Under the pieces are notes generated by a model. The model was given only the letters and a program-made list of their open reading frames with translations, did no database searches and was not told the origin of the DNA. A stretch of DNA of 64,000 nt, taken from a virus. Where the stretch lies: positions 32,001-96,000 of the IMG/VR virus record IMGVR_UViG_3300010883_028422. The stretch is one strand, 5' to 3'. Of this stretch, positions 7,833-64,000 are shown piece after piece. Both the position numbers and the translations under genes were made by a program. The first letter of the stretch is position 1; every line of letters starts with the position of its first letter.

Positions 7833-7877
7833 TTGATATATAATTTAACAACAAATATAATTCATTTTAAGTAAAAT

Positions 7878-7911
7878 AAAACCACCATAGCTCAAGCTAT
7901 GGTGGTTTTTT
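7878..7911 (+). terminator. Rho-independent terminator after the sheath-tube pair
   Basis: Perfect 14-bp inverted repeat AAAACCACCATAGC-tcaa-GCTATGGTGGTTTT ending in a T6 tract. The A-tract on the other side could make it bidirectional. Confidence 0.85.
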
Positions 7912-7937
7912 AATGCATTAAAATAATTGGAGATGGT

Positions 7938-42878: not shown

Positions 42879-42932
42879 ATGCTCTATTAATAATGCTAAA
42901 TATTATCGAAGTTGTATGTATTAGGAGAATTG

Positions 42933-48298: not shown

Positions 48299-49390
48299 AT
48301 GGAGAATATTTTGTATAACGTAAGAATGCATACTATGCTTGGCACGAATCACAGCTGGGCTGTTGTTATGAGAAATATTGCAAAATCACTTATTTCTCTT
48401 GATAATAATATTTGTATGAAGACAACAAATGGTATGTCAAATATAGATTCATTATTGTATGATTATTTTAATAAATCTAATAAAAATATTGATTTAGACA
48501 TATGCTACACTCTTCCGAGAAATTTTAATAGAAGATTTTTAAAAAATAGTAGGCTAAAGGCGGCTATATATAATTACGAAACAGATGTTATGCCAAAAGA
48601 ATGGGCTGAAAATTCTAAATATATAGACTACGCCTTCCCCTCTAGTTCGTTTTCTAAAGATATATTTTTAAAAAATGGCTGGCCAGAAGAAAAGTGTGTT
48701 GTTATTCCGCATGGAATTAATCTTTGTGATTTTGAAAACAAAGACGCATTTAGCCCCTCAACAAATAAATCATTTAAGTTTTTAAACGTATCAATTCCTC
48801 ATCATAGGAAAAATATAGACTTGCTGATTGACTCATATTATGATGCGTTTACAGATGATGATGACGTATGCCTTATGATAAAAACAAAATTGAAGAAGCC
48901 AAAGTTTTCTTTTGAATCTGATGTTAAAAAAATTATTATTAATGCTCAAAAGAAATTTTTTGGAAAAAATTTACCACAAATAGAGATTTTGACCAAAAGC
49001 TTTGAGAGCATGACTCCTGTTTATAATTGTTCAAATGCATTAGTTAGCGCGTCATCATCAGAGTGCTTCGGCCTGCCGATGCTTGAAGCAATTTCTGCTG
49101 GGAAAATTGTTATTGCTCCAAATGCAACTGGACATTTGGACTTTTTAAATAAAAATAACTCTATATTATATGAGTCGGACCCTATTGCTGCGCCTATATC
49201 ATATCAGTACTGGAGGCCGTCCAAGGGGGCCCTGACATATATGCCGAGAGGGGACGAGCTTTCTCAGTCAATGATTGATGTTTATAAAAATTATGATAAA
49301 TATTTACATAAATTTAAAGATAATATGACAAAAACATCTGAAGATTTTACATGGGAGTCTGCCGTAAAAAAAATATTGGAGCTATTATGA
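48299..49390 (+). CDS. Glycosyltransferase, GT-B fold (GT4-like)
   Basis: VIPHGI, RKNIDLLIDSY, SECFGLPMLEA (E-x7-E motif). Confidence 0.9.
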   Translation: MENILYNVRMHTMLGTNHSWAVVMRNIAKSLISLDNNICMKTTNGMSNIDSLLYDYFNKSNKNIDLDICYTLPRNFNRRFLKNSRLKAAIYNYETDVMPKEWAENSKYIDYAFPSSSFSKDIFLKNGWPEEKCVVIPHGINLCDFENKDAFSPSTNKSFKFLNVSIPHHRKNIDLLIDSYYDAFTDDDDVCLMIKTKLKKPKFSFESDVKKIIINAQKKFFGKNLPQIEILTKSFESMTPVYNCSNALVSASSSECFGLPMLEAISAGKIVIAPNATGHLDFLNKNNSILYESDPIAAPISYQYWRPSKGALTYMPRGDELSQSMIDVYKNYDKYLHKFKDNMTKTSEDFTWESAVKKILELL

Positions 49391-50964
49391 ATATATTTAA
49401 TTCTTCAAATAGCTCAGTATGGTCCGGTAAAGATTTTGAGCTAAAAGATAACGGAGGCTTAGTTTTAAGAAAAAAGGCATTTATAAAGCATAATGTGGGA
49501 AGCTTATCTGGTAGAAATAATTTAAAAATAATTGGTAAAAAAAGAACTGGCCCTGGAGACTTTGTGTTTAATATATTGTCTTCAGGCGGGTTGGTTTTAT
49601 TTTCTAAAAAAATATCTTTTAAAAAAAGAAGTTATTCTGAGATTTCTGTAAATTTTGATATAAATGGAGAATATGATGGTTGCAGCATAATAATTGAAAA
49701 GGACCAGAAATCATTTGGAACTATAGAAGTGTCAAAGATTTCAATTTCAAACATTTCTGGCAAGCCTTTGGGTAGTTCTTCAAAAGATAGCAAGGTTGTT
49801 ATGAAGAATAGCTTAAGGCAAAATATAAAGAAAAAAATGTCATATTTTAATGATATTTCCAAAAGAAAAGTAGCCTTTATAATTCCATATTCCATATATG
49901 GTGGTGCTGAAGTTTATTTAAAAAATATTATCAATAATTTAGATAATAATATTTATAATATAACAATATTATATATGAAAAAAAATATTTTAAGTAACTT
50001 TATAACAAATAAAAATGTAAAGCACGTTGATGCAAAAACACACGATCATTTAAGAAGCCTTCTTATCGCAAATAATTATAATTATTTAATATTTTATAAT
50101 AGTTATAATGTATATAACACAATAAAGCGCGTTGTTGAGCCAGAGCTAGTAGACAGCTTCATATATGAAATATATCATAGTGATTTTGTATGGAGTGATG
50201 CATTATCTGCAAGAAAAAGTCGAGATGGATTTTCTGGGTTAATATCTATATCAGAAAATTTAGGAAATAATATTAAAAATATTAATTCAAGGCATGTTGT
50301 GCCCGTTGGCATTGATTTAGATTTATTTAAAAAATACAATAAAAAGATATTATATAATTCTAAAAAAATAAATGTTGATAGAAGAATTTTGGTTGGAGTG
50401 AAGCCAACAATAGGCGTTGTTTCTAGATTGTCAAAAGAAAAAAATGTTGGGTATATATTAGATTTGGCAAAGATTATGTTAAATTATCAGTTTATAATAG
50501 TTGGCGATGGTCCGGAAAAAAATAATCTTATAAAGAGTTGCGCAGACAGGGGGATTAAAAATGTAATTTTTGCCGGATATGTTAAAAATACACATGATTA
50601 TTATAATATATTTGACGCATTTGTTTTGCCAACAAAATGTTCTGAGGGCACGCCAATTTCCATATTAGAGGCTATGGCGTGCAGTGTTCCTATTTTTACA
50701 ACAAATTATGGAAATATAAAAGACTTTGTTTTTAATAATTCAAATGGATTTATTATATCATTAAATGCAGATGAAGATTCAAGGTTGATAATTGAAAATT
50801 TTAAAAATAAAGATGTTGTTTCTAATGCTAAAAAGTATGTAGTTAAAAATCATGATATAGGCACCACGTGTGAAGAGTTTTCTTCGATACTTTTGTCAAA
50901 CGGAAGTTTCCATAAAAAAGATAGAAATTCGAGTAGTTTGTTGGTAACAGGTTATTATGCGTAA
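49387..50964 (+). CDS. GT4-like glycosyltransferase with an extra N-terminal beta-rich domain
   Basis: ATGA overlap at 49387. GGAEVY, VSRLSKEKN, IVGDGPE, SEGTPISILEAMAC. Confidence 0.9.
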   Translation: MNIFNSSNSSVWSGKDFELKDNGGLVLRKKAFIKHNVGSLSGRNNLKIIGKKRTGPGDFVFNILSSGGLVLFSKKISFKKRSYSEISVNFDINGEYDGCSIIIEKDQKSFGTIEVSKISISNISGKPLGSSSKDSKVVMKNSLRQNIKKKMSYFNDISKRKVAFIIPYSIYGGAEVYLKNIINNLDNNIYNITILYMKKNILSNFITNKNVKHVDAKTHDHLRSLLIANNYNYLIFYNSYNVYNTIKRVVEPELVDSFIYEIYHSDFVWSDALSARKSRDGFSGLISISENLGNNIKNINSRHVVPVGIDLDLFKKYNKKILYNSKKINVDRRILVGVKPTIGVVSRLSKEKNVGYILDLAKIMLNYQFIIVGDGPEKNNLIKSCADRGIKNVIFAGYVKNTHDYYNIFDAFVLPTKCSEGTPISILEAMACSVPIFTTNYGNIKDFVFNNSNGFIISLNADEDSRLIIENFKNKDVVSNAKKYVVKNHDIGTTCEEFSSILLSNGSFHKKDRNSSSLLVTGYYA

Positions 50965-52066
50965 AGTTGTAAATTTTCATGGAATTGGCAGGCCCGGAAG
51001 TGGTTATGGTGACGCGTGTATAAATATAGCAAAGGCATTTAGTTTGACCAATATAGATTTAAATTTTAATTTATCAAAGTTTAAAACTATAGCGGAATCA
51101 GCGAAACTTAAGTCTTGCGATGCTGTTGGTGACATAAATTTTTATGTTGGTCCGCCACCATACAAGAATATGTCTGAAGATAAATACAATATAATACATT
51201 TTTACTGGGAGGCGGATCGGCTGCCACCTTACTGGGGGAGGTTCATACTTAAGGCGGATGAAATCTGGGCCCCATGCAAGCTTGTCGAGTCTGCATGCAG
51301 AAGGGCTGGATTTTCTAAAAAAATTAGAATAATTCCAACTCCATATGATAAGTTTGCGAATAGCAAGGGTTATACTTTGGATATACCATCTGAAATTTCT
51401 GATAAATATTTTGTTGGTGATAATGTATTTAAATTTTATTCTATATTCCAATGGCACCATAGAAAGGGGCCAGATGTATTGCTAAATTCTTACTGGAAGA
51501 CGTTTGGTAGACACGATAATGTTATTTTGATATTGAAAGTTAATGCTTTAAATCTACCTGGATATACTATTGATGATATAAAGAGCGATATATCAAGTAT
51601 AAAAATAAAACTAAATTTAAATTACTATTCTCCAGTTTATGTGATTGATTCAATTTTGCCGAAGAAGTATATTGGAGCCTTACATAATTATTCAGATTGC
51701 TATATATCGCCACATAGAGGAGAGGGCTGGGGCATGCCAATAGGTGATGCTATTTCTTATAAAAATCCAGTAATTATAACAAAATATGGTGGAATATCTG
51801 ATTATTTAAATCAAAGTAATTCTGCTATAATAAAGCATAGACTAACACATGTTAAAAATATGTCTTGGTCTCCAAATATTTATAATAAATCACAAAGATG
51901 GGCTGAGCCGAGCGTGAATTCTGCATCTGAATTAATGCGTGATGTTTATGAAAATTTTGATAAATATAAAATAAAGGCAGGCAGGGCTCACTCTATAATT
52001 AGTGGGTTTTCTATAGATAGTGTTTCAAAAATTATTAGTGAGCATATATGTCAAATAAAATTATAA
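50957..52066 (+). CDS. GT4-like glycosyltransferase
   Basis: SGYG, WHHRKGPDVLL, SPHRGEGWGMPIGDA. Confidence 0.9.
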   Translation: MRKVVNFHGIGRPGSGYGDACINIAKAFSLTNIDLNFNLSKFKTIAESAKLKSCDAVGDINFYVGPPPYKNMSEDKYNIIHFYWEADRLPPYWGRFILKADEIWAPCKLVESACRRAGFSKKIRIIPTPYDKFANSKGYTLDIPSEISDKYFVGDNVFKFYSIFQWHHRKGPDVLLNSYWKTFGRHDNVILILKVNALNLPGYTIDDIKSDISSIKIKLNLNYYSPVYVIDSILPKKYIGALHNYSDCYISPHRGEGWGMPIGDAISYKNPVIITKYGGISDYLNQSNSAIIKHRLTHVKNMSWSPNIYNKSQRWAEPSVNSASELMRDVYENFDKYKIKAGRAHSIISGFSIDSVSKIISEHICQIKL

Positions 52067-53004
52067 TTGCCGATTGGCTTGTGCACGGAGGACATCAGTA
52101 TGAGTTTTTCAAAACTGGTCCTAAATTTTTTTGTACAAAATTAGATTCGAAACCTCCAAAGTCAGGTGACTTTGGAAGACCTGTTTTTTCAAATAAAAAA
52201 GTTAATATGGTTGCGGAATATGAAAAAAATTTATTATCTAAAAATTTTGATATAATAATGGTCAGAGCTGGTGTGACTCCAGGTCGCTACAATGCACTTC
52301 AAGATAAAAAAAGAAGAACGCCGGGTATTGCGGTTATACAAACTGTCTCTAAGCATCCCGATTCGAGCTTTCCAATCCCAAGTTGGGCGAGGGTTGTTGT
52401 TTGGAATTCAAAATATGTAATGGATCAAAATTATAAAAATCTTCCGGGCAAAAAACATTTGTATATTCCACATGGATTTGACCCAAGTGAATTTTGCAAT
52501 ATGAATACTATTCGTAATGAAAGGATTCTATCTGTATCTAGTGTTTTTCAAAAAAGAGGGACGATTCTTGGGTTTGATGACTGGAGATTTGTGTCTAATG
52601 AGACCAGATTGTGTGACTTAATTGGACATGGTGATGAAAGGCTTCGTGAGTCTATAGGCACATTTTCATTGAATAAATTAGTTAAAAAATATAACGAGTA
52701 CAGTGTGTTTTTAAATACAACAAAAAGGAGCGCCATGCCGCGTGCGAGAGCTGAGGCTCTTATGTGTGGTACACCAATTGTTACAACTAATAATTATGAT
52801 ATAGGCAGATATCTCAGAGATGGGAAGGATTGTTTGTTTGCGGATAATAAAGAGGATATGATCAAATGCGTGAGAAAAGTTTTGAGATCTAAAAATCTAC
52901 AGAGAGAGCTTAGCAGTCATGGTCGGGCGAGAGCTATAAAATTCTTTGGGATAAAATCCTATAAGAATCGATGGCAAGAGGCCTTTTATGAGTCAACAAA
53001 ATGA
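52048..53004 (+). CDS. GT-B glycosyltransferase
   Basis: YIPHGFD, KRG, AMPRARAEALMCGTPIVTT. The first Glu of the E-x7-E motif is not conserved. Confidence 0.8.
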   Translation: MSNKIIIADWLVHGGHQYEFFKTGPKFFCTKLDSKPPKSGDFGRPVFSNKKVNMVAEYEKNLLSKNFDIIMVRAGVTPGRYNALQDKKRRTPGIAVIQTVSKHPDSSFPIPSWARVVVWNSKYVMDQNYKNLPGKKHLYIPHGFDPSEFCNMNTIRNERILSVSSVFQKRGTILGFDDWRFVSNETRLCDLIGHGDERLRESIGTFSLNKLVKKYNEYSVFLNTTKRSAMPRARAEALMCGTPIVTTNNYDIGRYLRDGKDCLFADNKEDMIKCVRKVLRSKNLQRELSSHGRARAIKFFGIKSYKNRWQEAFYESTK

Positions 53005-53879
53005 GAGTTTTATGCATTGTTGATTCTTACAGGTGGGCCCTATATAATAGAGCTATTAATTTAAAAAAACATTTTCAAAATTATAATTTTGATATTATTC
53101 ATTTTGAAAAAATTGAATCAGTTAATTTTAATAATTATGATGTAATATATATTTTAAATTGGCCAATTTGGCCATTTGTGAAGCATAAGGTTAGTAGAAG
53201 TCGGAGGTATAGGTTGGTGACAACTGTTTGTAGCCATGTTGGTCGTTCCCACGCAAGAGATATGGGGCGTATATTTAATAACTTTGATAAGATAAGCACA
53301 TCTAATGACTTCTTATATGAAGAATTTAAGCCTGTTTATAAGAGCAAGGTAATAAACGCCCCATTCGGAGTGGATGGTGATTTATTTGTTAAAAAAACTA
53401 TGCCTTCGAATTATAATTATATATTTGGATGGGTAGGCAACCCAGATAGATCTGTAAAAAGGTTTAATGATATAAAAGAGGTGTTTGGCAACCTTGGTGA
53501 TAAGTACAGATTAAAGGTAGCAACTAATAAGAGCAGGTTTGGTAGAGCTAAAATGGTTGATTTTTATAATTCTGTAGGTACAGTTATATGCTTTAGTGAT
53601 AGCGAAGGAACTCCGAACCCCATGCTTGAGGCTGCAGCCTGTGGCCGGGCTATAATATCAACTAGAGTTGGTTGTGTCCCGAGTCTTTGTAAGGGGTTGG
53701 GCGTAAATATATTTGTAAAAAATGCTTCAGATCTTAAAAGTAAAATTATTAGTTATAGCGCAAGTCCAAAGGGAATAAACTTGATTGGAAGCTCTTTGGA
53801 TAAAATAGCGCACGATGAGTGGTCTTGGAGAGATAGGGCTGTTGAATTCGATAAGCTATTTAAAGGTGGTCGGACATGA
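53001..53879 (+). CDS. GT4-like glycosyltransferase
   Basis: PFGVD, GWVGN, SEGTPNPMLEAAACGRAIISTRVG. Confidence 0.88.
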   Translation: MRVLCIVDSYRWALYNRAINLKKHFQNYNFDIIHFEKIESVNFNNYDVIYILNWPIWPFVKHKVSRSRRYRLVTTVCSHVGRSHARDMGRIFNNFDKISTSNDFLYEEFKPVYKSKVINAPFGVDGDLFVKKTMPSNYNYIFGWVGNPDRSVKRFNDIKEVFGNLGDKYRLKVATNKSRFGRAKMVDFYNSVGTVICFSDSEGTPNPMLEAAACGRAIISTRVGCVPSLCKGLGVNIFVKNASDLKSKIISYSASPKGINLIGSSLDKIAHDEWSWRDRAVEFDKLFKGGRT

Positions 53880-55003
53880 AAATAGGCCTATTACGCCCAC
53901 CCGCTGGGATTGGCGGGGCAGAAGCTACAATGATAGAGTTATATCAAACGCTCAAGGAGCATGGAGAGGATGCCTGGATAGCTTTTGATTCGAGCAAGAA
54001 GGGCATATTTGCTGATTTTATAAACAAGGATCTGTTTGAGAAAAAATTTGAAAGATTGTCTGGATTGAATATATCAAAAGAACAGTTTTCTGAAGAATAT
54101 GTTTTAAAAAACATTATAGATTCAGATGCGCTTATTCTTTTGCAATATAGAGCTTTTCCCGAAAGAATTCGCACTAAAGTAAAAAGTTCTAAGGCCGATG
54201 TGTACATATATGTTCCTGGGAAAAATACACCCCATGTGACCGTTCCAATGGAGGATGGGCTAAAAGTTAAGGCTTTTTTGTTTAATTCAAAAGAAACTCT
54301 AAAATATCATTTGAATATAAAGTATTCAAAAGACCCTTATGCGGATGGGTTGATAAAGAAGAAGTTTAGGCATGCCCACCCGCCCTTATTTTTGGGGAAT
54401 TATACAGAGGTTAACAAAGTAGACTACAAGACTTATAGGTTTCAGCATTTTAAAATAAAGAAAAGTGAGTTCTCCATTGGAGTCGTGGGGAGAATCCAGC
54501 CGTCAAAGCGCCCATTTGAAGCTTTAGATATATTTAAAAAATTAGAAAAACATTATAATTATGATGCTTTTCCAAGAAAATTATATTTCTATGGGGGAGG
54601 GGCCAAAGAGTATGTAGCTGAGGTTAAGCAATATGCAAAAAAATTAAAAATAGAGCACAAGGTGGTCTTTTGTGGGTTTTCCCCGGATGTACGATTTCGT
54701 ATAAAATCTATGGATTCTATTTTGCATTGTTGTGTAATGGAATCGTTGTCTAGAGGTATACGAGAGGCCATGGTCTTAAAAACACCCGTGGTGGCGTATG
54801 ATGGGTTTGGCAATAGGAGCTTGCTAGGGGGGCAGTCTGGGCGCCTTCTCTATTCTAACGCTGATCAAGCGTCCATAATCTTGTTGAAAATCGGAACAAG
54901 TGGCAAAGTTAAGAGGCAGTTCTCTACTTCAGTTTATAATGATATTATAAATATAGAAAAAAAACTTGGAAGAAATTACTTGGATCTTTTATATGAAAAA
55001 TAA
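53876..55003 (+). CDS. GT4-like glycosyltransferase
   Basis: GGAE, VGRIQPSKR, MESLSRGIREAMVLKTPVV. Confidence 0.88.
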   Translation: MKIGLLRPPAGIGGAEATMIELYQTLKEHGEDAWIAFDSSKKGIFADFINKDLFEKKFERLSGLNISKEQFSEEYVLKNIIDSDALILLQYRAFPERIRTKVKSSKADVYIYVPGKNTPHVTVPMEDGLKVKAFLFNSKETLKYHLNIKYSKDPYADGLIKKKFRHAHPPLFLGNYTEVNKVDYKTYRFQHFKIKKSEFSIGVVGRIQPSKRPFEALDIFKKLEKHYNYDAFPRKLYFYGGGAKEYVAEVKQYAKKLKIEHKVVFCGFSPDVRFRIKSMDSILHCCVMESLSRGIREAMVLKTPVVAYDGFGNRSLLGGQSGRLLYSNADQASIILLKIGTSGKVKRQFSTSVYNDIINIEKKLGRNYLDLLYEK

Positions 55004-55892
55004 AAAAAGAATATTATTAATCCCTGACGTGAGGGGCTGGGCCTATGACGTTATAGCGCAAAGTATCATGAAGTTTTCAAAAAAATATGATTATGATATA
55101 TTTTATGAAGCAAATATTGGCTCAAAAAAGCTTAGCTTTGAAGGATATGATGCCGTATATTGGTTTTATTGGGGGAATATAGAAAGATATGAAAAGCTAA
55201 TTGCCGGGTTTGATCGTAATAAAATTATAGCTGGAATTCATAGCTATAATTCATGGCAAAAGAGAGGTATGTCATCAGTGGATGTCATTAGACATTGCAA
55301 AAGGTATGCAAAAATCGCAGTTCCTTCATATACTTTGGCAAAAGATTTGAACATTCCGTCCCGCCACGTTGTTCACTCTGGGTATAGATCGAGAATATTT
55401 AAGCCACTTGGAACCAAAGAGGGAGGGCCGTTTATGTGGGTTGGAAATACAAGTTCCGCAAATCATGGAAGAATAAAGGGGTATGACTCTGTAATAAGGC
55501 CTTTATTTGAGAGTCGAAAGGATATTTCACTTATAACTCAAACAAGAGATCGTGCAATCAAAAATTATAAAATGCCAGAATTTTACAAGAGAGGCTCGTA
55601 TTTAATTTGCGCTTCACAAAGTGAGGGTGGCCCACTACCTGTTTTGGAAGCGCTGGCGTGCGGGATCCCAGTTATAACAACAGATGTTGGCTGGTGTAAA
55701 TATTTAATAAAGGACGGAGAGAACGGATATAAGTTTGATGGAACTCCGGCGGATCTTTCGAGAAAAATAGATAAAATTATGAAAAAAAATTACAAAGAAA
55801 TGTCGTTGTCTGCCGCTAAAAGCGTTAGGGGGTATTCGTGGAAAAAGATCATAGGGCAGCACGAAAGAATGTTTGGATTGGTTGCAAAATAA
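54993..55892 (+). CDS. GT4-like glycosyltransferase
   Basis: ATG 54993 is the likelier start. WVGN, KG, SQSEGGPLPVLEALACGIPVITTDVG. Confidence 0.9.
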   Translation: MKNKKRILLIPDVRGWAYDVIAQSIMKFSKKYDYDIFYEANIGSKKLSFEGYDAVYWFYWGNIERYEKLIAGFDRNKIIAGIHSYNSWQKRGMSSVDVIRHCKRYAKIAVPSYTLAKDLNIPSRHVVHSGYRSRIFKPLGTKEGGPFMWVGNTSSANHGRIKGYDSVIRPLFESRKDISLITQTRDRAIKNYKMPEFYKRGSYLICASQSEGGPLPVLEALACGIPVITTDVGWCKYLIKDGENGYKFDGTPADLSRKIDKIMKKNYKEMSLSAAKSVRGYSWKKIIGQHERMFGLVAK

Positions 55893-56008
55893 TGTTTATT
55901 TTTGTATATAGTTATGAAAAATATGGCTCGTTGCGCTCATATATGGGCTTAGGGCGGGTGGCTTATGCGGCCAGAGAGGTTGATGTGATGGTTCGAGATG
56001 GCGAATAA
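55892..56008 (+). CDS. Possible 38-aa ORF (MFIFVYSYEKYGSLRSYMGLGRVAYAAREVDVMVRDGE)
   Basis: Starts in a TAATG overlap with the GT stop and fills the gap to the next gene. No motif. Confidence 0.3.
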   Translation: MFIFVYSYEKYGSLRSYMGLGRVAYAAREVDVMVRDGE

Positions 56009-56684
56009 GCGTGGCAATGATTTTCAAAAATTATGGACAAGGGAGGATGGAATGTTTGAATTTAGAATAGATGATGAATTCAAGCACTTTGCTGATCTTC
56101 AGATAACGCAACTTGTGGATGACCCAGAATTTTACCTCAAAATGAGCAGGTCAGAGTATAAGGCTATTAGGAAGCATATAGGAAAGCCTAAGAAGATTTT
56201 AGATCTCGGTTGCGGGCTCGGCAGGATGTCTGTGTTTTTAAATTATAAATTAAGCCAAGAACATAGGCGCTCTGCGCATTTTATTTTAGCAGATGTGACT
56301 AAAGAAAGTGATAAAATTGAATATGGCTGGGATCCGGATAACTCATATTATAATAATCTTGATCTTACGGCCAAATTCGCACAACTTCATGGCCTCAGTA
56401 ATTTTAGGACATTTAATCTTTTGACTGAAGACTTAAATATACATCATAATATTGACTTAGTCATGTCATATTTGGCGGTAGGATTTCATTACCCCATAGA
56501 GCAATATATGAAGACTCTTCTTAACATAACATCTTATCATTGTGTTATGATCTTTGGAGTAAGAAAGGGGCAATATAATTTGGATGATTATAAAAAGCAT
56601 TTTTCTAGTGTTTTAATAGAAAAAAATACTATAGACACAAGAGAGGAGATCTTAGTTTTAAAAGGAAAAAGAAATTGTAGTTAA
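55998..56684 (+). CDS. Class I SAM-dependent methyltransferase
   Basis: Motif I ILDLGCGLG, later DLVMSYLAVGFH. Confidence 0.85.
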   Translation: MANKRGNDFQKLWTREDGMFEFRIDDEFKHFADLQITQLVDDPEFYLKMSRSEYKAIRKHIGKPKKILDLGCGLGRMSVFLNYKLSQEHRRSAHFILADVTKESDKIEYGWDPDNSYYNNLDLTAKFAQLHGLSNFRTFNLLTEDLNIHHNIDLVMSYLAVGFHYPIEQYMKTLLNITSYHCVMIFGVRKGQYNLDDYKKHFSSVLIEKNTIDTREEILVLKGKRNCS

Positions 56685-56702
56685 TGTTTAAAGTTATAGA
56701 TT

Positions 56703-57671
56703 ATGAGTAAAAAGTCAAAATTATATAAGAAATCAACTTCGCGTAAGAAGCCAATCTCAACTTCGCGTAAGAAGCCAATCTCAATTTCGCGTAAAAAGTC
56801 AACTTCCAGAAGATTAAGGGGAAATCACATAGGTATATTGTGTCCGCCAAGATCTGGGTCAACATTGTTATCTTTGATTTTGGGAGCTCATAGTGATATT
56901 ACAAATTTTGGAGAAAGTCACTGGATTGTTAAAGATGTCATTGGTCGGGATGGATGCATTGATAATGGATGCCGGGTTCATGGGAGAGCTTGTTATGTAA
57001 TAAATAAAATTAAAAAGTCAATGAATTCAAATAATCATTTAAGCTTACTATGTAAACACTCAGATACATCTTTTATATGTACATCAAATAAAAGCTGGAA
57101 GCTTTATGCGGGTATGGATATTGACTTGGTTAATAATAAGTTTATTATCCTGTATAAGCCGCTGGAGGTGTGGGTGGGCTCCTTCATAGGCACAGTGAAA
57201 ATTAAAAAAATGCCAAAAAATAAAATTCGTGCAGTTCAATATTTATTACAAATATATGAGGATTATTATAATGAAATATTTAATTTAATAGAAAGCGGAG
57301 TTATAAAGAATGATCAATATATTGTTGTTAATTACATGTCTTTTGCAAAGTCTCCAAAATTAGTTATGAAGGATATTTGTAATTTTTTAAAAATACCATA
57401 TCAAGGCAATATGTTATTATTTAATGATTATTTTATATCCAAGGATCCGAACCAGCACCCAATAGGTGGTAATTATAACACTTATTGCCCTAAGGCACAG
57501 ATTAATTCTTCGGTTATTACAGATAGATACAAAAAAGATTTTAACAATATATATATGGAGGATAAGCATGTTGGTATCCTTGGAGAGAGTTTGATTAATT
57601 TAATAAAAAAAAATAAAAGATATAAATTTATAATTAATAAATTAATATCATTAAATAGTGTTAGAGGCTAG
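56703..57671 (+). CDS. Sulfotransferase-family protein with a basic repetitive N-terminus
   Basis: GILCPPRSGSTLL matches the 5'-PSB (PAPS-binding) loop. VVNYMSFAKSPKLVMKDICNFLKIPY matches the family C-terminal motif. Confidence 0.75.
   Translation: MSKKSKLYKKSTSRKKPISTSRKKPISISRKKSTSRRLRGNHIGILCPPRSGSTLLSLILGAHSDITNFGESHWIVKDVIGRDGCIDNGCRVHGRACYVINKIKKSMNSNNHLSLLCKHSDTSFICTSNKSWKLYAGMDIDLVNNKFIILYKPLEVWVGSFIGTVKIKKMPKNKIRAVQYLLQIYEDYYNEIFNLIESGVIKNDQYIVVNYMSFAKSPKLVMKDICNFLKIPYQGNMLLFNDYFISKDPNQHPIGGNYNTYCPKAQINSSVITDRYKKDFNNIYMEDKHVGILGESLINLIKKNKRYKFIINKLISLNSVRG
56733..56810 (+). repeat. 24-bp tandem duplication plus degenerate copies encoding STSRKKPI-STSRKKPI-SISRKK-STSR
   Basis: TCAACTTCGCGTAAGAAGCCAATC occurs twice exactly (56733-56780), followed by two partial copies. 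Confidence 0.95.
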
Positions 57672-57673
57672 TT

Positions 57674-58324
57674 ATGAATAAAAAAGACAAAGAAAAAATA
57701 GTAACTTTTTGGAATGTTGGCTCGTTAGAAGAGGCGAAATATGATAGGGTTTCCACAAGAAAGGAAGAGAGAAAGGCTGTTAATGCTTTTGATGCTTCAG
57801 TTGTTAACTCTTTGATTACAGATCATATTTTAAAACATAAAAGAAATATTACAAAGAAAGATAGAGTTTTGGACTTTGGGTGCGGTGTAGGAAGAATCCT
57901 CAAGGGATTTCATAAGTTTGAATCACAAGTTTATGGAACAGATATTTCTGAGAACATGTTATCTTTCTGCAAAGAAGAATTGGGCAGTTTTAAAGTTAAT
58001 TTAAAAAAATGCAATGTTGGAAGTGTTCCCTTTGGGGATGATTTTTTTGATATAATTTATTCATTTCATGTTCTTCAGCATATTGCAACAAAAAAGCTTT
58101 TGATAAATACTTTGCGTGAAATTTACAGAACACAAAAGCCGGGCGGAATAGCTGTTTTGCATTTTATAAGAAAAGTTTCAGAAAGCGATAAAGAATTTGG
58201 TGGATTTGCCGGATTTAGACCAAGCAGGGATACTGCGGTGAAAATTTGTAAGAAAATAGGGTACGAGCTGATAGACATTGACGCAGTAGAGGGTGGGGCC
58301 TTTATATTGCATTTGCGAAAGTAA
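57674..58324 (+). CDS. Class I SAM-dependent methyltransferase (type 11-like)
   Basis: VLDFGCGVGRI, GTDISENML, FDIIYSFHVLQH, KPGG. Confidence 0.92.
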   Translation: MNKKDKEKIVTFWNVGSLEEAKYDRVSTRKEERKAVNAFDASVVNSLITDHILKHKRNITKKDRVLDFGCGVGRILKGFHKFESQVYGTDISENMLSFCKEELGSFKVNLKKCNVGSVPFGDDFFDIIYSFHVLQHIATKKLLINTLREIYRTQKPGGIAVLHFIRKVSESDKEFGGFAGFRPSRDTAVKICKKIGYELIDIDAVEGGAFILHLRK

Positions 58325-58339
58325 AGCTGTGAGGTGGAT

Positions 58340-58417
58340 GTGAAATTAAATTTAGGTAGTGCCAGGCAAAGATTTGAGGGTCTTAAGGGCATAGACCATA
58401 GGAAGATAGTAAAATAA
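58340..58417 (+). pseudogene. 25-codon remnant resembling a methyltransferase N-terminus (MKLNLGSARQRFEGLKGIDHRKIVK)
   Basis: GAGG RBS, GTG start, stop overlapping the next ATG (TAATG). KLNLGS...G..GID is SAM motif I/II-like. Confidence 0.5.
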
Positions 58418-59142
58418 TGAAGCTAATTTTGGTATTTACGACAGGAAGAAGCGGCACTGCCTTTTTATCACAGGCTTTTGGCGGGGCAAGGTTTCAAAAA
58501 AAGAAGATCCATCAGGCAGTAGGTGCTGATGCCCTAGTCACTCATGAGGGTTGGGGCGGAATTCCGGTTTCGAAGCTTAAGGGCCAAAATGATCTCTCAA
58601 GTCATAGCTCTGCCAAGATAGTTGATAAATATTTAAATAACATGATTATTAAGTCAAAGAGTGAATATCCTATGGCAGAAAAATATTTAGTTACTGACCA
58701 TAGAGTTGGGCGATATTGCATACCGTCAATAGAGAGTACCAATATAGATTATCAGGTTATTAGATTATTTAGAGATCATAAAGATGTCGCAAGCTCTTTT
58801 TTGAGGAGGGTGAGGAAAAGGAGGTCCGAATACACTAAGGCTGAATTTTTAAAGTTTTATAACGAAATTTGGAGTCATAGTTTTTATCAACCAAATGATG
58901 AGTTTGTTATTAATAAAATTTCAAATGATATATGGGATAATATAAGCATGTATGATAAATTTTTATGGTATTCTAAAGAGGTTGATGCACAATGGTCTGA
59001 GGTTAAAAAGATACTTCCTAGAAACAAGTATCTAGAGGTAACTTTTGATGAAATTATTAAGCCAGTTGGGCTTAACAAAGTAATGAGATTTATAGAGATT
59101 CCTTGGTCAAAAAAATGGGCTGAAATAAGGGCAAATGGGTGA
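58417..59142 (+). CDS. Sulfotransferase-like (P-loop) protein
   Basis: VFTTGRSGTAFL PSB-like loop, VIRLFRD, YLEVTFDEI. Confidence 0.65.
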   Translation: MKLILVFTTGRSGTAFLSQAFGGARFQKKKIHQAVGADALVTHEGWGGIPVSKLKGQNDLSSHSSAKIVDKYLNNMIIKSKSEYPMAEKYLVTDHRVGRYCIPSIESTNIDYQVIRLFRDHKDVASSFLRRVRKRRSEYTKAEFLKFYNEIWSHSFYQPNDEFVINKISNDIWDNISMYDKFLWYSKEVDAQWSEVKKILPRNKYLEVTFDEIIKPVGLNKVMRFIEIPWSKKWAEIRANG

Positions 59143-59169
59143 TGCAGTGTTTTGGATTTGGTGTTTGAT

Positions 59170-59997
59170 ATGATTATAGCGCAGATGGGCAATGGGTTTG
59201 TTGGTAGTGCATTGCATAAGTCTTTTAAGTTAAATGGCATAACTACAATTATTTATGACAAGTTTCAAAAGATAGGATCGGCAAGCTCCGTTTTAGACTC
59301 TGAAATTCTATTCTTGTGCCTCCCCACTCCATTCATTAAAGACAAAGGCTTTGATCTTTCCGCTATAGAGGAGAATCTATTGTTTTTAAAAGAGAATAGG
59401 TATGGTGGACTTTGTGTGATTAAGTCTACAGTGGAGATCGGAACGACAAAAGCACTTGCAGAGAGGTATTCCTTGAATATTGCTCATAATCCAGAATTTT
59501 TAACAGAAAGAACGGCGTTTGAAGATTTTCATAACCAAGACCATATTGTTTTGGGAAAGTCATCAGATTCTGGGCTTTTTGATTCTTTAATTTTATTTTA
59601 TAAAGATCTTTACCCAAATTCTAGAATTTCTGTATGTTCATCCGATGAATCTGAGGCGATGAAGATTTTTAGAAATTGTTTTTATGCACAAAAAGTCATG
59701 ATATTTAACGAATTTTACTTTTTATGCAATAAGCTTGGAATGAATTATGATAGGGTTAGAGATTTGATGCTTTGTGATTGGCTTGGAGAGATGCATACCA
59801 TAGTGCCTGGTCCGGACGGAGGGGTTGGCTACTCTGGGCATTGCTTTCCAAAGGATACGGAGGCTTTGTTGCTTCAGATGAAGAATAATGACTCGGCACA
59901 TAAGGTTTTAGAGGCGGCTATAAATGAGCGAAATGAGATAAGGCCGGAGATGGTAAATATTATAGAGGAGTCAGCGGGGTTTGCAGATGGGGATTGA
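59170..59997 (+). CDS. ugd: UDP-glucose/GDP-mannose dehydrogenase family, short form
   Basis: GNGFVG Rossmann motif, FLCLPTP, IKSTV, HNPEFL and catalytic GYSGHCFPKD. Only about 275 aa. ATG 59170 is likelier than 59152. Confidence 0.8.
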   Translation: MIIAQMGNGFVGSALHKSFKLNGITTIIYDKFQKIGSASSVLDSEILFLCLPTPFIKDKGFDLSAIEENLLFLKENRYGGLCVIKSTVEIGTTKALAERYSLNIAHNPEFLTERTAFEDFHNQDHIVLGKSSDSGLFDSLILFYKDLYPNSRISVCSSDESEAMKIFRNCFYAQKVMIFNEFYFLCNKLGMNYDRVRDLMLCDWLGEMHTIVPGPDGGVGYSGHCFPKDTEALLLQMKNNDSAHKVLEAAINERNEIRPEMVNIIEESAGFADGD

Positions 59998-60928
59998 TGC
60001 AAAAACAATTTTAGTTACAGGTTCGGCCGGGTTTATAGGGGGCCACTTGACGGATGAGCTTTTAAGGCTTGGGTGTAGGGTTGTTGGTGTTGATAATATG
60101 AGGTCTGGACTTAGCAGCACGATGAACCTGCATATTTTAAATAAAAATTTTATACCAAGGCATATCGACATAAGAGATGAGTCTGTGGAGGGCATTTTTG
60201 AAGAATTTTCTCCAGATTTAGTCTTTCATTTGGCCGCAATACCCGGGGTTACGCCATCGGTTATTGATCCAATTTTGTCAAATGATGTAAATATAAATGG
60301 AACACTGAATATGTTATATCTGTCTCATAACTATAATGTAAAAAGATTTATTTTTTCATCATCATCATCTGTATATGGTGGTTCTGATATTTTGCCAACG
60401 CCAGAAGAGACTCCGCTAGATCCGAAGTCTCCATACGCATTACAAAAGAAGGTTGGTGAAGAGTATTGCAAGCTTTTTTCAGAGATTTATCAGCTTGATA
60501 CGGTTTGCTTGAGATACTTCAATGTTTTTGGCCCAAGGCAGAGGTCGGACTCTGCGTATGCTGCGGTTATTTCTGCATTTTGTAATAGTGTAAAAAACGA
60601 AAAAAATCCAGTAATATATGGCGATGGAGAGCAGTCTAGGGACTTTTGTTTTGTAGATAATGTTGTTTCTGCGAATATTTTGGCGGCGACTTCTGATTTT
60701 GAATTCTCCGGAGATGCATTCAATGTTGGTTGCGGAGGAAGCATCTCTGTAAACTCAATTTGCAGCTCATTAGAGACAAAAGAGCCTGTTTTTAAGGATA
60801 AGCGCCCAGGTGATGTCATGTGCTCTCAGGCAGATATAACAAAAGCTTGTAAAATGTTAAAGTATAAGCCCTTAGTTTCTTATGAAGAAGGACTAAAGGC
60901 TACATTGGATTGGCATCTAAACAGTTAA
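59981..60928 (+). CDS. NAD-dependent nucleotide-sugar epimerase/dehydratase (extended SDR, GalE/WbpP-like)
   Basis: VTGSAGFIG, FSSSSSVYG, SPYALQK (YxxxK), LRYFNVFGPRQ, RDFCFV. Confidence 0.92.
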   Translation: MQMGIDAKTILVTGSAGFIGGHLTDELLRLGCRVVGVDNMRSGLSSTMNLHILNKNFIPRHIDIRDESVEGIFEEFSPDLVFHLAAIPGVTPSVIDPILSNDVNINGTLNMLYLSHNYNVKRFIFSSSSSVYGGSDILPTPEETPLDPKSPYALQKKVGEEYCKLFSEIYQLDTVCLRYFNVFGPRQRSDSAYAAVISAFCNSVKNEKNPVIYGDGEQSRDFCFVDNVVSANILAATSDFEFSGDAFNVGCGGSISVNSICSSLETKEPVFKDKRPGDVMCSQADITKACKMLKYKPLVSYEEGLKATLDWHLNS

Positions 60929-60960
60929 TAATTATAATTAAATATAGAGGGCATTGTGAT

Positions 60961-62790
60961 ATGTGCGGTATATTTGGTTATATAGGTGGCGAAGATTCCC
61001 ATCAGAGGGTTAAGCTGGGCCTTGAGGGGCTTGCCTATAGGGGCTATGACTCGGCCGGAATAGTGTCGGTTGTAAATAATAAATTTGAAGAAAACAAGTG
61101 TGTTGGCCACCCAGAAGAGTTGTTGGATTTAGATATTGAATCTAACCTGTCAATAGGGCATAATAGATGGGCAACGCATGGCGCTCCAAGCGCCTTAAAT
61201 GCTCATCCGCACTTCTCAAATGACGGCAAGATAGCGCTTGTTCACAACGGAATAATAGAAAATTATTATGAGATAAGTGATTTTTTAGAAAAAAATAATT
61301 TTTCTTTTTATTCAGATACTGATACTGAGTTAATCCCCAACCTCATTCAATATTATATGGGTAATTTAAATATTGTTGATGCGACTATAGCCGCAATGAA
61401 TGATATCAGGGGGGCTTATGCGATGGCCTTTATCCACATAAACCACCCAGAGAAGATAATTATAGCGAGATTGGGCTCTCCGGTTTGTGTTGGCAGAGAC
61501 GCGTCTGGTGGCATATACGTATCTTCTGATGCAGGCGCTTTACCGCAGTCTGTAAAGGAGGTTATGGACATAGGTGACGGCAAGCTGGTGGTGGCGGACT
61601 CTTGCGGCAGCGTTGTAGTTAAAAATCTTGAAGGAAATACCTTAGAGCATAAATTTGAAGAGGCTGAGATAAAAGAAAAAAATTATACAATTGGTAGCTT
61701 TAATCATTTTTTAGAAAAAGAGATATTTGAGCAGCCTATTTATCTTAGAAACGCTATTAGCGGCAGGGTAAATATTGATAAAAAAATAATAAAGCTTAGC
61801 GGCATATCAGGCCATATTCAGAGTATATTAGATGCCGAAGAGATAATCTATACTGGATGTGGATCGGCATATTATGCTGCGTGTATTGGCGCACAGTCAA
61901 TGGAGAGTGTTGCGAGAAAGAGAGTTAGGGTTATGCCGGCAGGAGACCTGAAGTATTATAATCCAGTTATAAATGAAAAAACTGTTTTGATAGCGGTATC
62001 TCAATCTGGAGAGACGGCTGATACTATAGGCTGTATAAAGATGGCGAAAAATCATGGCGCAACTACATTGGGAGTTGTAAATGTTGTAAATTCAACTATA
62101 TCAAGAATGGTTGATTCTGGGATATATATTCGCGCAGGAGAAGAGGTTAGCGTTGCATCTACAAAATCTGTTATCAATCAGATGATGGCAATGATATCCT
62201 TGGCGGTGTTGGTTGGATCAAAAAGAGATTTATCAGAATTAGAATATGAGTCTTTGATATCAGAATTGCATTGTTTGCCAAATATGATTGACAAAGTTTT
62301 ATTAGAAAGCGGTATGATTGAAGAGATTGCAAAAAAATATGCAAATTATAGCAATATGCTGTGCATTGGCCGAGGAGCGTTAGAGCATATTGCAAAAGAA
62401 GCTGCTTTAAAGATAAAAGAGATAAGCTATATTCATGCAGAAGGATATTCTGCAGCAGAATTAAAGCACGGACCTCTTGCGCTCATTGATGAGAATATGC
62501 CGACACTAGCAATGGTTGCGAGCGGACCGATGGAGGGGAAGATGCTGAGCAATATAAGGGAGATTAAAAGCAGAGGTGGCGCGGTAATAGGGGTTGTCAG
62601 CTCTGATGTTTCAAAAGAAACCAGGAGGGTTTTAGACGAAATTATAGAGGTCCCTGCATGCTCAAACAAGCTCCTTGAGCCATTATTATTTTTGGTTCCA
62701 TGCCAGCTATTTTCTTATTTTCTAGCAAAAGAAAACGGACGCTGCATAGACCGTCCAAGAAACTTGGCAAAAAGTGTTACGGTTGAGTAA
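60961..62790 (+). CDS. glmS: Glutamine--fructose-6-phosphate aminotransferase
   Basis: True start MCGIFG (catalytic N-terminal Cys) at 60961. YRGYDSAG, GHNRWATHG, HNGIIEN, SQSGETAD, ELKHGPLAL, PRNLAKSVTVE. Confidence 0.97.
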   Translation: MCGIFGYIGGEDSHQRVKLGLEGLAYRGYDSAGIVSVVNNKFEENKCVGHPEELLDLDIESNLSIGHNRWATHGAPSALNAHPHFSNDGKIALVHNGIIENYYEISDFLEKNNFSFYSDTDTELIPNLIQYYMGNLNIVDATIAAMNDIRGAYAMAFIHINHPEKIIIARLGSPVCVGRDASGGIYVSSDAGALPQSVKEVMDIGDGKLVVADSCGSVVVKNLEGNTLEHKFEEAEIKEKNYTIGSFNHFLEKEIFEQPIYLRNAISGRVNIDKKIIKLSGISGHIQSILDAEEIIYTGCGSAYYAACIGAQSMESVARKRVRVMPAGDLKYYNPVINEKTVLIAVSQSGETADTIGCIKMAKNHGATTLGVVNVVNSTISRMVDSGIYIRAGEEVSVASTKSVINQMMAMISLAVLVGSKRDLSELEYESLISELHCLPNMIDKVLLESGMIEEIAKKYANYSNMLCIGRGALEHIAKEAALKIKEISYIHAEGYSAAELKHGPLALIDENMPTLAMVASGPMEGKMLSNIREIKSRGGAVIGVVSSDVSKETRRVLDEIIEVPACSNKLLEPLLFLVPCQLFSYFLAKENGRCIDRPRNLAKSVTVE

Positions 62791-62815
62791 AATACAAACT
62801 TAGTGGAGGCGTTAT

Positions 62816-63811
62816 ATGCTTACGGCAGTTATAACTGGAGTTGCAGGCCAAGATGGTAGTTATTTAGCAGAGTTATTGTTGGATAAAGGCTACAAGGTGG
62901 TTGGAATATCTAGGCGAAAAAGTGTTAATGATGGATTGCAGAATTTAGAACACAATGTGTTGGGTAATGATAATTTTACACTTTTGAATGGAGATATAAA
63001 GGATTCAACTTTTATATATAGGTGCGTTGAGGAATACAGGCCAGATGAGTGGTATAACTTAGCTGCACAATCTAATGTTGGACATTCTTTTAAAGAACCA
63101 GTTGAAACATTCGGAACTAACGCATTAGCTGTAGTTATTCAGCTTGAAGCCATAAGATCCCTGTCTCCATCGACAAAGTTTTATCAAGCATCTACCAGCG
63201 AGCTATGGGGAGGGCTCAGCTGCCCCAAAACAGGATATAGCGAGAGCATGAGGTTTTATCCAAGATCTCCATATGGCGTATCCAAGTTATCAGCGTATTG
63301 GTCAGTGGTCAATCATAGAGATGCGTATGGCTTGTTTGCATGTAGCGGTATACTCCATAATCACAGCAGCCCAAGGAGGGGTTTGGACTTCGCAACAAGA
63401 AAAATAACCAGAGGCGTTGCGGAGATTACTCTTGGGCTGAAGGATAAGATAAGAATGGGTGATTTGAGCGCATTTCGTGATGAGGGACATTCCAAGGACT
63501 ATGTTGAGGCTATGCATCTTATGTTGCAAAATGATAGCCCAAAGGATTATGTTATTTCCACGGGAACCGGAGCAACTATAGAGGATATGTTTAGGCATGT
63601 CGCATCTTTTGCAGGTTTAAAATTTGAAGACCTCTATGAGGTAGATGAAAGATTTATGAGGCCGTCTGAAGTGCCGTTTTTGCTTGGTAATTCATCGTTA
63701 GCAAAGAGCGAGCTTGGATGGAGTCCAAAATATACATGGAAAAACCTATTAGAAGAGATGTTCGAGAGTGATTTGTTGGTAATTTCAAATGAAAGATGGA
63801 AAAATAGTTAA
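62816..63811 (+). CDS. gmd: GDP-mannose 4,6-dehydratase
   Basis: ITGVAGQDGSYL, YNLAAQS, FYQASTSEL, PRSPYGVSK, FATRKIT, RPSEV. GGAGG RBS. Confidence 0.95.
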   Translation: MLTAVITGVAGQDGSYLAELLLDKGYKVVGISRRKSVNDGLQNLEHNVLGNDNFTLLNGDIKDSTFIYRCVEEYRPDEWYNLAAQSNVGHSFKEPVETFGTNALAVVIQLEAIRSLSPSTKFYQASTSELWGGLSCPKTGYSESMRFYPRSPYGVSKLSAYWSVVNHRDAYGLFACSGILHNHSSPRRGLDFATRKITRGVAEITLGLKDKIRMGDLSAFRDEGHSKDYVEAMHLMLQNDSPKDYVISTGTGATIEDMFRHVASFAGLKFEDLYEVDERFMRPSEVPFLLGNSSLAKSELGWSPKYTWKNLLEEMFESDLLVISNERWKNS

Positions 63812-64000
63812 AAAAATAGTAATAATAGCGTTTAATTTTGGATTTGCAGGAAGATATGTTAACGGTCCAGGGATATGTCTTTATAATTTATATAATATCC
63901 TAAAAAAACACACTTCTGTTGACGTTAAGATATTTACAAAAATGCATGCGCATGGGCAATTTAATTCAGACGATATATTTTCGATAGATGATAAAGAATA
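63789..64000 (+). CDS. Partial ORF, probably another GT-B glycosyltransferase (runs off the window)
   Basis: My translation: MKDGKIVKKIVIIAFNFGFAGRYVNGPGICLYNLYNILKK..., a strand followed by a GP/GG-helix typical of GT4 N-termini. Confidence 0.5.
   Translation, partial: MKDGKIVKKIVIIAFNFGFAGRYVNGPGICLYNLYNILKKHTSVDVKIFTKMHAHGQFNSDDIFSIDDKE

Follow-up and report, generated by a model that had tools for sequence, protein, structure and literature searches.

The stretch of DNA considered here (the window, 64,000 nucleotides) covers bases 32001-96000 of a single 135,425-bp viral contig, IMG/VR record IMGVR_UViG_3300010883_028422, in which no terminal repeat was found and nearly all genes lie on the + strand. 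From position 48299 to its end at 64000 the window is occupied by an island of genes for sugar-building enzymes. About 20 such enzymes, all soluble, form a block right after the tail-fibre genes, and they do so throughout the clade of huge phages to which the contig belongs. What the island makes, and where the product ends up, is the question pursued below. The two tail genes and the island genes are as follows, in window coordinates, with protein lengths in amino acids (aa).

32991-42878, + strand: TAIL3295, giant distal tail/fibre-like protein of 3295 aa, encoded after a gp6-like baseplate wedge gene.
42912-48233, + strand: TAIL1773, 1773 aa, the last structural gene, assigned by position and by conservation beside TAIL3295.
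48299-49390, + strand: GT363, GT4-type glycosyltransferase (GT), the hallmark first gene of the island (Pfam Glycos_transf_1, 33.6 bits).
49351-50964, + strand: GT537, GT4 with an N-terminal domain resembling carbohydrate-binding module families 4 and 9 (CBM4/9) (Pfam, 99.3 bits).
50957-52066, + strand: GT369, GT4-type, conserved in the clade (Pfam, 28.3 bits).
52048-53004, + strand: GT318, Glyco_trans_1_2 (CgeB-like), conserved in the clade (Pfam, 46.1 bits; 43-64% identity in relatives).
53001-53879, + strand: GT292, GT4-type by Pfam, with an EX7E motif.
53876-55003, + strand: GT375, GT4-type by Pfam.
54966-55892, + strand: GT308, GT4-type by Pfam, with an EX7E motif.
55998-56684, + strand: MT228, weak class-I methyltransferase (weak Pfam match to TehB/Methyltransf_31).
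56703-57671, + strand: ST322, sulfotransferase (Sulfotransfer_3, E 3e-11), with the loop PPRSGST for 3'-phosphoadenosine 5'-phosphosulfate (PAPS).
57674-58324, + strand: MT216, methyltransferase dependent on S-adenosylmethionine (SAM) (Methyltransf_11, E 9.8e-21; 50% identical to its homologue in relative G003).
58417-59142, + strand: ST241, sulfotransferase-like, with no Pfam or NCBIfam match and a PAPS-loop-like motif, TGRSGT.
59152-59997, + strand: short UDP-sugar 6-dehydrogenase-like protein (UDPG_MGDP_dh; Pfam, NCBIfam).
59981-60928, + strand: TviC-like NDP-hexuronate/hexose 4-epimerase (Pfam, NCBIfam).
60910-62790, + strand: GlmS, glutamine-fructose-6-phosphate transaminase (NCBIfam, 621 bits against a cut-off of 381).
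62816-63811, + strand: GDP-mannose 4,6-dehydratase (GMD) (GDP_Man_Dehyd, E 7.7e-103; 58-67% identity in relatives).
63789-64751, + strand (the window ends at 64000): GT320, GT4-like by Pfam.
64752-65471, + strand: GT2 gene (Pfam).
65684-68179 (L003:3684-6179), + strand: GT4+TubZ fusion of 831 aa (Pfam).

A preliminary description of this DNA had claimed that at least 15 co-directional, mostly overlapping genes start 65 nt after the last structural gene, and that they encode seven or eight GT-B transferases, two methyltransferases, two sulfotransferase-like enzymes and a set of nucleotide-sugar enzymes. This inventory has been corroborated. Fifteen + strand open reading frames (ORFs), all of those described, fill 48299-63811, and a sixteenth begins at 63789 and leaves the window. 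Junctions mostly overlap, by 4-40 nt, and the only sizeable gaps are the 65 nt before the first gene, 105 nt at 55893-55997 and 92 nt at 58325-58416. Pfam recognizes seven Glycos_transf_1-type (GT-B/GT4) proteins in 48299-64000, with GT320 starting at the very end. One methyltransferase match is strong (MT216) and one weak (MT228). ST322 is identified by Pfam and ST241 by protein-atlas features, structure and motif, and the dehydrogenase, epimerase, GlmS and GMD are all found by Pfam and NCBIfam. The island does not stop at the window edge. It continues for about 4 kb through GT320, the GT2 gene and the GT4+TubZ fusion before giving way to a UvsW helicase gene, so that the whole of it encodes ten glycosyltransferase domains, nine GT-B and one GT2.

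At least six of the nine GT-B domains carry the EX7E catalytic motif, and conservation of the motif across homologues, checked for GT363 and the fusion, was found in both (ECFGLPMLE in GT363). The GT363 model (pLDDT, the predicted local accuracy score, 82) and the AlphaFold model of GT537 (pLDDT 79) both show a GT-B fold. In GT537, whose true start is likely the conserved Met13, the model begins with a beta-sandwich (aa ~14-134; window 49387-49800) that superimposes on CBM_4_9 models with template modelling (TM) scores of 0.78-0.83. This domain is kept across the clade and, as far as a fold comparison can tell, suggests that GT537 binds a glycan chain. GT363 matches many and wide-ranging viral GT1 models, including those of giant viruses, in a search against a viral library only.

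What if the acceptor of these transferases is DNA? Glycosylation of DNA by GT-B enzymes has precedents in phages (bioRxiv 10.1101/2023.12.21.572611), and the GTs might modify hydroxymethylated bases against restriction, as in T4 or TET-associated systems. One hint is that GT363 scores 20.1 bits with the Pfam family 'GT4-conflict', below the cut-off of 26. However, a thymidylate-synthase-type hydroxymethylase (PF00303) was not found in the contig or in a 94%-complete relative, with a positive control. A search for Tet_JBP (PF12851) also gave no match, but its control was silent too. Moreover, ten GTs with a supply of uronic acids, deoxyhexoses and amino sugars, plus methylation and sulfation, are far more than any DNA glycan described to date would call for. 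Hypermodification of DNA is therefore very improbable.

The remaining enzymes would activate and decorate the sugars. ST322 matches the CurM sulfotransferase in the PDB and, weakly, a protein-tyrosine sulfotransferase. ST241 aligns with sulfotransferase clusters over its full length (protein-atlas feature score 0.96, TM 0.72-0.74). No adenosine 5'-phosphosulfate kinase, which would supply PAPS, is encoded by the phage. MT228 and ST322 form a cassette (55998-57671) of 31.5% guanine plus cytosine (GC) that is missing in G003, the relative of closest content. The start of ST322 (window 56703-56800) is a basic tandem peptide repeat of the type KKSTSRKKPIS. The dehydrogenase retains the catalytic motifs NPEF and GHCFPKD and lacks the C-terminal nucleotide-binding domain entirely. 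It is not a local truncation, because relatives keep the same short form (262-277 aa, 57-73% identity).

The island follows two very large genes. The gene ahead of TAIL3295 encodes a baseplate wedge protein (phrog_6, E 4.5e-45), and TAIL3295 itself contains a ConA-like lectin (Laminin_G_3) domain at aa 3049-3119. Homologues of TAIL3295, 29-44% identical, occupy the same position in all 14 of the related loci described below. TAIL1773 had no match in Pfam, PDB or cultured-phage searches, and is called structural, with the reserve due to an assignment free of any family match, from its place and conservation next to TAIL3295. It carries a mucin-like tract rich in serine, threonine and proline (S/T/P) at aa 1533-1583 (47508-47660), beyond which about 190 aa remain to the C-terminus. 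Its relatives align only as far as about aa 1520-1539, upstream of the tract, and the most distant one only to 730. The lineage-specific end has no match in the PDB or among cultured phages. Over 47508-48233, the end of the gene, GC content rises and GC skew falls. TAIL3295 has a peculiarity of its own, namely (DGY)6 and (DGY)5 arrays at window 39333-39386 and 40749-40793, which give 11 observed DGY motifs where about one is expected. These arrays are missing in the TAIL3295 homologues of three relatives and are specific to this phage.

The junction between the tail genes and the island is conserved. Fourteen viral loci were collected through alignment of GT363 homologues, and the order TAIL3295-TAIL1773-GT363 is present in 14 of 14, even in a relative with proteins just 29-37% identical. 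GT537 and GT369 follow wherever a locus extends that far (11 of the 14 for GT369 after GT537), and GT318 usually does. The gap between tail gene and GT is 27-51 nt in relatives, or the genes overlap. Three relatives could be compared over the whole region (G001, G002 and G003; the contig itself is G000). They share an outer frame consisting of the two tail genes, four GTs, a variable middle, then dehydrogenase, epimerase, GlmS and GMD, then GT320, GT2, GT-TubZ and UvsW. Most related loci also have the GT320-GT2-(GT-TubZ) block. GT292, GT375 and GT308 belong to only part of the clade (all three in G003, GT292 in L029 and L032) and are replaced by other genes in G001 and G002. The middle of the relatives adds mannose-6-phosphate isomerase (PMI), phosphomannomutase (PMM), DegT aminotransferase, hexapeptide acetyltransferases, GT2 and Sulfotransfer_2. 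In the 316-kb relative G001 a 1128-aa protein with PARP-catalytic and NUDIX domains stands among the sugar genes (L017:564-3950), and the same island holds NifU/Fe-S assembly genes and genes for enzymes dependent on pyridoxal phosphate. Island proteins are 33-64% identical to those of relatives and structural proteins 33-52%. The island GTs thus diverge about as much as the structural genes, which fits vertical inheritance as part of the core genome.

These comparisons bear on the simplest objection, that a cellular polysaccharide locus was misassembled onto phage DNA, or that the whole is a cellular contractile-tail element. The drop in GC content at the island start, to 0.31 from about 0.37-0.43 over the tail genes, might be taken to favour it. 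However, low GC is usual in glycan loci. An assembly chimera at 48.25 kb, which the preliminary description had named as a danger, is excluded because all 14 independent contigs, which come from different samples, have the junction. It had likewise raised the prospect of a cellular chromosome with wzx/wzy or an ABC exporter just beyond 64 kb. What follows instead is more GTs and then the UvsW and DnaB replication genes; wzx, wzy and an ABC exporter were not found there. A phage-G-like capsid gene on the same contig argues in the same direction, and an artefact can be considered close to negligible.

The contig is viral and not cellular. The major head protein (phrog_2522, E 2.8e-71), which shares 49% identity with gp27 of Bacillus phage G, and the head-decoration protein are encoded upstream of the window, and the tail sheath, tube-like and gp6-like baseplate wedge proteins within it. 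Of the two viral hallmarks that had been proposed as a check, the capsid is thus present, with sheath and baseplate genes in addition, whereas no terminase was found on this fragment, and the 94%-complete relative has only a weak Terminase_6N-like match. Relatives in IMG/VR are up to 316 kb long (CheckV completeness 94%), and contigs of family members reach 395-420 kb. The GT363 family comprises 339 clusters, and for the best 120 of the 339 the longest contigs measure at most 420 kb. Because relatives span 316-420 kb, the contig is a fragment of a huge phage (300-400 kb), and the jumbo tailed phage proposed at the outset is borne out by these sizes and by the capsid, sheath and baseplate genes. 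The clade consists of uncultured marine huge myophages, distant kin of Bacillus phage G, and probably belongs to PGC_A, a poorly characterized marine jumbo phage cluster (PMC9123017). Phage G itself does not serve as a model, having neither a glycan island after its tail module nor a GT537 homologue. Another candidate was the moraphage lineage, which has four core GT families and for which heat-shock genes are reported in all genomes (PMC12619734). It was rejected because HSP70 was not found in the contig or the three relatives. As to the host, a scan of bacterial genomes with GlmS gave no match, and the flanks of the window yielded no tRNA genes.

The next point concerns the membrane. Bacterial polysaccharide loci encode parts that initiate a glycan on a lipid, flip it and export it, and the preliminary description had noted the lack of Wzx/Wzy, ABC exporter, WbaP/WecA-type transferase and membrane anchor. 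Profile searches and a hydropathy scan agree with it. Bac_transf (PF02397) and WecA-type Glycos_transf_4 (PF00953) were not found in G000-G003, nor were Wzx (PF01943), Wzy (PF04932) and ABC-2 (PF01061) in the contig and its three profile-searched relatives, one of them 94% complete; controls were positive in both cases. No protein of this island has a convincing transmembrane segment, and across the four islands scanned such segments occur only in three small proteins of one relative. The sole multi-pass membrane protein on the contig is 109 aa long, has three transmembrane segments and is encoded far from the island. Its gene belongs to the largest minus-strand block of the contig (L004:10845-13654), which also encodes a 535-aa protein bearing a lipoprotein-like signal (LISC) and a protein of 273 aa that has a membrane segment at its N-terminus. 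The profile negatives show that the phage encodes no such parts; use of host machinery remains compatible with them.

The junction may also bear on co-expression of the island with the late structural genes. TAIL1773 and GT363 lie on the same strand, separated by a 65-nt gap without a terminator-like hairpin. Strong hairpins followed by T-runs stand directly 3' of the capsid, head-decoration and tail-tube genes (L001:14917-15016, L001:18985-19143 and window 7833-7937). A consensus scan for terminators and promoters gave counts equal to those of shuffled sequence. The sequence TATTTTAAT, which has nine copies on the contig, four of them intergenic, occurs at window 29196, window 48248 and L004:6163, in each case 45-51 nt ahead of a start codon (those of a baseplate gene, GT363 and PhoH). 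It was considered as a late-promoter motif and no conclusion was drawn, the sites being too few and one of them not at a late gene.

What, then, is the glycan for? From a soluble island beside tail genes we infer a glycan on the virion, probably on the tail fibres, and this is the leading explanation, if one held tentatively and at somewhat less than even chance. Several lines of evidence favour it: a position beside the fibre genes that does not vary throughout a deep clade; the junction without a terminator while capsid, decoration and tube genes have strong hairpins; GT families that are core and virus-specific; export genes and transmembrane proteins that were not found; intact EX7E motifs; the mucin-like S/T/P tract of TAIL1773; and a precedent in the capsid and tail-tube glycans of mycobacteriophages (PMC12619734). 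The multi-residue, methylated and possibly sulfated particle glycan of the preliminary description therefore keeps its foundation, a soluble viral island, while its attachment to the virion stays at the level of inference.

A virion pathway might operate as follows. The island would be a virus-owned cytoplasmic glycan assembly line, core to the clade. Its precursor enzymes would raise the nucleotide-sugar pools of the host, GlmS supplying amino sugars, the short dehydrogenase and the TviC-like 4-epimerase uronic acids, and GMD 6-deoxyhexoses. The ten transferase domains could then assemble a hetero-oligosaccharide or polysaccharide stepwise, which the methyltransferases and sulfotransferases would decorate with host SAM and PAPS. 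Assembly might take place directly on particle proteins in the cytoplasm, the likeliest acceptors being TAIL3295 and TAIL1773, the giant distal tail/fibre proteins encoded just upstream. Perhaps the inner glycan is a conserved product of the invariant flanking GT blocks, and the outer part, made by the variable middle genes, is lineage-specific. Such a coat might serve shielding, adhesion or stability.

Several observations do not fit this proposal easily. No conserved acceptor signal is seen in capsid, tube or fibre proteins. Of 30 proteins whose genes precede the island, capsid and tail proteins included, TAIL1773 alone shows an S/T-rich window, and the relatives are without the tract; since their alignments end at about aa 1520-1539, it is not a clade-wide acceptor. 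The C-termini of capsid and tube proteins are not S/T-rich, unlike the glycosylated extensions of mycobacteriophages. Nor can the acceptor be read from the fold, because the nearest solved structures to GT537 (PimB', HepE, BshA, PglA, WbnH, WaaG, TarM and GtfA) span lipid, small-molecule, polysaccharide and protein acceptors; the viral GT1 matches of GT363 are no more telling. The GT4 enzymes of lipopolysaccharide (LPS) and capsule loci are soluble too, and the lipid carrier and exporters of the host are available to a phage, so that solubility by itself does not place the glycan on the particle.

This last point leads to a different explanation, which is quite possible and ranks close behind virion glycosylation. 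The soluble GTs may act at the inner membrane face on host lipid-linked intermediates (Und-PP-sugar from WecA/WbaP, Und-PP being undecaprenyl pyrophosphate, or lipid A-core), after which a host flippase, ligase or exporter would deliver altered LPS, capsule or exopolysaccharide (EPS). The purpose would be to block superinfection or the adsorption of progeny to debris, possibly in a carrier or pseudolysogenic state with TubZ partitioning the genome. The enzyme set is indeed the usual stock of an LPS, capsule or EPS locus: GT4, GT2, UDP-sugar dehydrogenase, TviC-like epimerase, GMD and GlmS are all O-antigen/capsule/EPS families, and the relatives add DegT aminotransferase, hexapeptide acetyltransferases and PMM/PMI. 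The best NCBIfam matches of GT320, weak as they are, are EPS transferases, and the fold matches of GT537 include the soluble LPS-core/O-antigen GT4 enzymes WaaG, WbnH and PglA. Content of the middle part varies among relatives as it does between serotype loci. The site, between late and replication modules, is also a hotspot for accessory genes, as the PARP-NUDIX and NifU genes of G001 illustrate. Finally, similar clusters in jumbo cyanophages have been interpreted as modifying the host surface, and phage tubulin has been linked with pseudolysogeny (PMC7824862; PMC12801897).

Nevertheless, remodelling of the host envelope meets difficulties of its own. An initiating transferase, flippase, polymerase, ligase and exporter were not found in the four genomes, and host export would need to accept a glycan built by about ten foreign GTs. 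In addition, the flanking GT blocks are invariant beside the tail genes throughout a deeply diverged clade, whereas host-surface clusters are described as sporadic and polymorphic, even among related phages (PMC7824862).

The most unusual gene of the island lies beyond the window. The GT4-TubZ fusion occurs at full length in at least 72 metagenomic protein clusters, with EX7E and tubulin GTP-binding motifs both conserved, and its tubulin part is closest to the TubZ-like protein RepX (E 1.6e-18). A literature search found no description of a GT4-TubZ fusion. A sister contig (L028:9010-11422) has GT and tubulin as two genes, adjacent and overlapping, in the order of the fusion, so the link between them is old. 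Judged from the coding sequence, the fusion is a Rosetta-stone hint of physical coupling between GT and tubulin. It would put at least one island transferase in the cytoplasm on or near a filament, which is neutral between a virion glycan and a remodelled envelope. A 77-aa ORF encoding a single hydrophobic segment (L003:3458-3691) lies between GT2 and the fusion, where the relatives have no room for it. It may be DUF2061-like. Downstream of UvsW come a DnaB-type helicase and a complete PrkA/DUF444 (YeaH)/SpoVR triad (L003:11561-16102, 61-74% identical in relatives), and farther on ribonucleotide reductase, PhoH and endolysin.

Could the product be neither on the virion nor in the envelope? Non-structural phage or host proteins might be modified along GT-TubZ filaments, or a soluble sulfated polysaccharide or a glycolipid might be released at lysis. 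The sulfotransferases, for their part, might act on protein tyrosines, for example in the DGY arrays of the fibre, and not on sugars. The fusion of a GT4 with intact EX7E to a TubZ with intact GTP-binding motifs, and the adjacent overlapping genes of the sister contig, are compatible with the filament version. The tyrosine version can draw on the arrays themselves and on a weak, near-full-length similarity of ST322 to protein-tyrosine sulfotransferase (E 0.013). However, this similarity is below significance and the CurM-type match is better, relatives without DGY arrays have sulfotransferases all the same, and an intracellular or released product of this kind has no phage precedent. It is unlikely. 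Combining the fusion with the virion glycan produces the most detailed scenario of all: a tail-fibre coat of sulfated, methylated glycan containing uronic acid and deoxyhexose, made by about ten cytoplasmic viral GTs, one of them TubZ-fused, and organized along a viral filament. Taken as a whole, this is something of a long shot.

How does the island compare with known systems? Glycans on the C-termini of capsid and tail-tube subunits have been demonstrated in mycobacteriophages (Freeman et al., 2023, as cited in PMC12619734 and PMC12801897). There, as here, a tailed phage encodes soluble GTs but neither a lipid-carrier step nor an export step, and a glycan shield is proposed. In the present phage, however, the glycan is a prediction, and the capsid and tube C-termini have no S/T-rich extension. 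The island is also far larger, with ten GT domains, a nucleotide-sugar supply of its own, sulfotransferases and the tubulin fusion. Viral multi-enzyme pathways also make the capsid glycans of chloroviruses and the fibril glycans of mimiviruses, with nucleotide-sugar synthesis, cytoplasmic GTs and methyltransferases, independently of the host secretory route, and the content of their clusters varies between lineages. These viruses belong to another realm and infect other hosts, and there is no sequence kinship beyond the GT-B fold. To our knowledge, neither sulfotransferases nor a tubulin fusion occur in their glycan clusters.

A further comparison is with jumbo cyanophages. Like the present phage they are marine jumbo myophages with many GTs and nucleotide-sugar epimerases and dehydratases in clusters. 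Their LPS/capsule clusters are described as sporadic and polymorphic between related phages, and are of unproven function (PMC7824862). Some contain export or Kdo genes (pgaA, kdsA/B), whereas no export gene was found here, and here the flanking GT blocks are invariant beside the tail-fibre genes with only the middle variable. A marine cyanophage with 13 GTs, S-SCSM2R, is among the published examples (PMC12801897), and the suggestion in the preliminary description that so complete a pathway is unusual for a tailed phage was therefore overstated (see also PMC7824862). Bacterial Wzx/Wzy or ABC-type O-antigen and capsule loci share with the island the families for sugar activation and transfer, the low GC and the variable content. 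They differ in that the island is without an initiating phosphoglycosyl transferase, flippase, polymerase and ABC-2 permease, and in its viral location. Flagellin glycosylation islands provide a cellular parallel, in which soluble GTs, sugar-modifying enzymes and methyltransferases stand beside filament genes with no flippase or polymerase. Their acceptor, flagellin, is decorated in the cytoplasm and exported by the flagellar type III system. This is an analogy only, with no homology to the island beyond generic folds.

Jumbo-phage GT clusters and phage virion glycosylation are thus already known; distinctive here are the conservation across a clade, the sulfation and the tubulin fusion. The literature search turned up no account of the island in this clade, or of phage islands combining sulfotransferases with GTs. 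Should the glycan be attached to the particle, no tailed phage would be known to have a larger self-contained glycosylation pathway, and this one would be the first to include sulfation. The clade is widespread in ocean metagenomes, with hundreds of GT363 and GT-TubZ protein clusters, some of them from Tara, and a glycan coat, if it exists, would affect sticking to marine gels and particles, resistance to grazing or enzymes, and recognition. If the host envelope is remodelled instead, the island would be a clade-wide, core-genome case of a function hitherto seen as sporadic accessory cargo. On either reading, the invariant tail-fibre-GT arrangement and the GT-tubulin fusion offer testable handles on the uncharacterized giant phages of PGC_A (PMC9123017).

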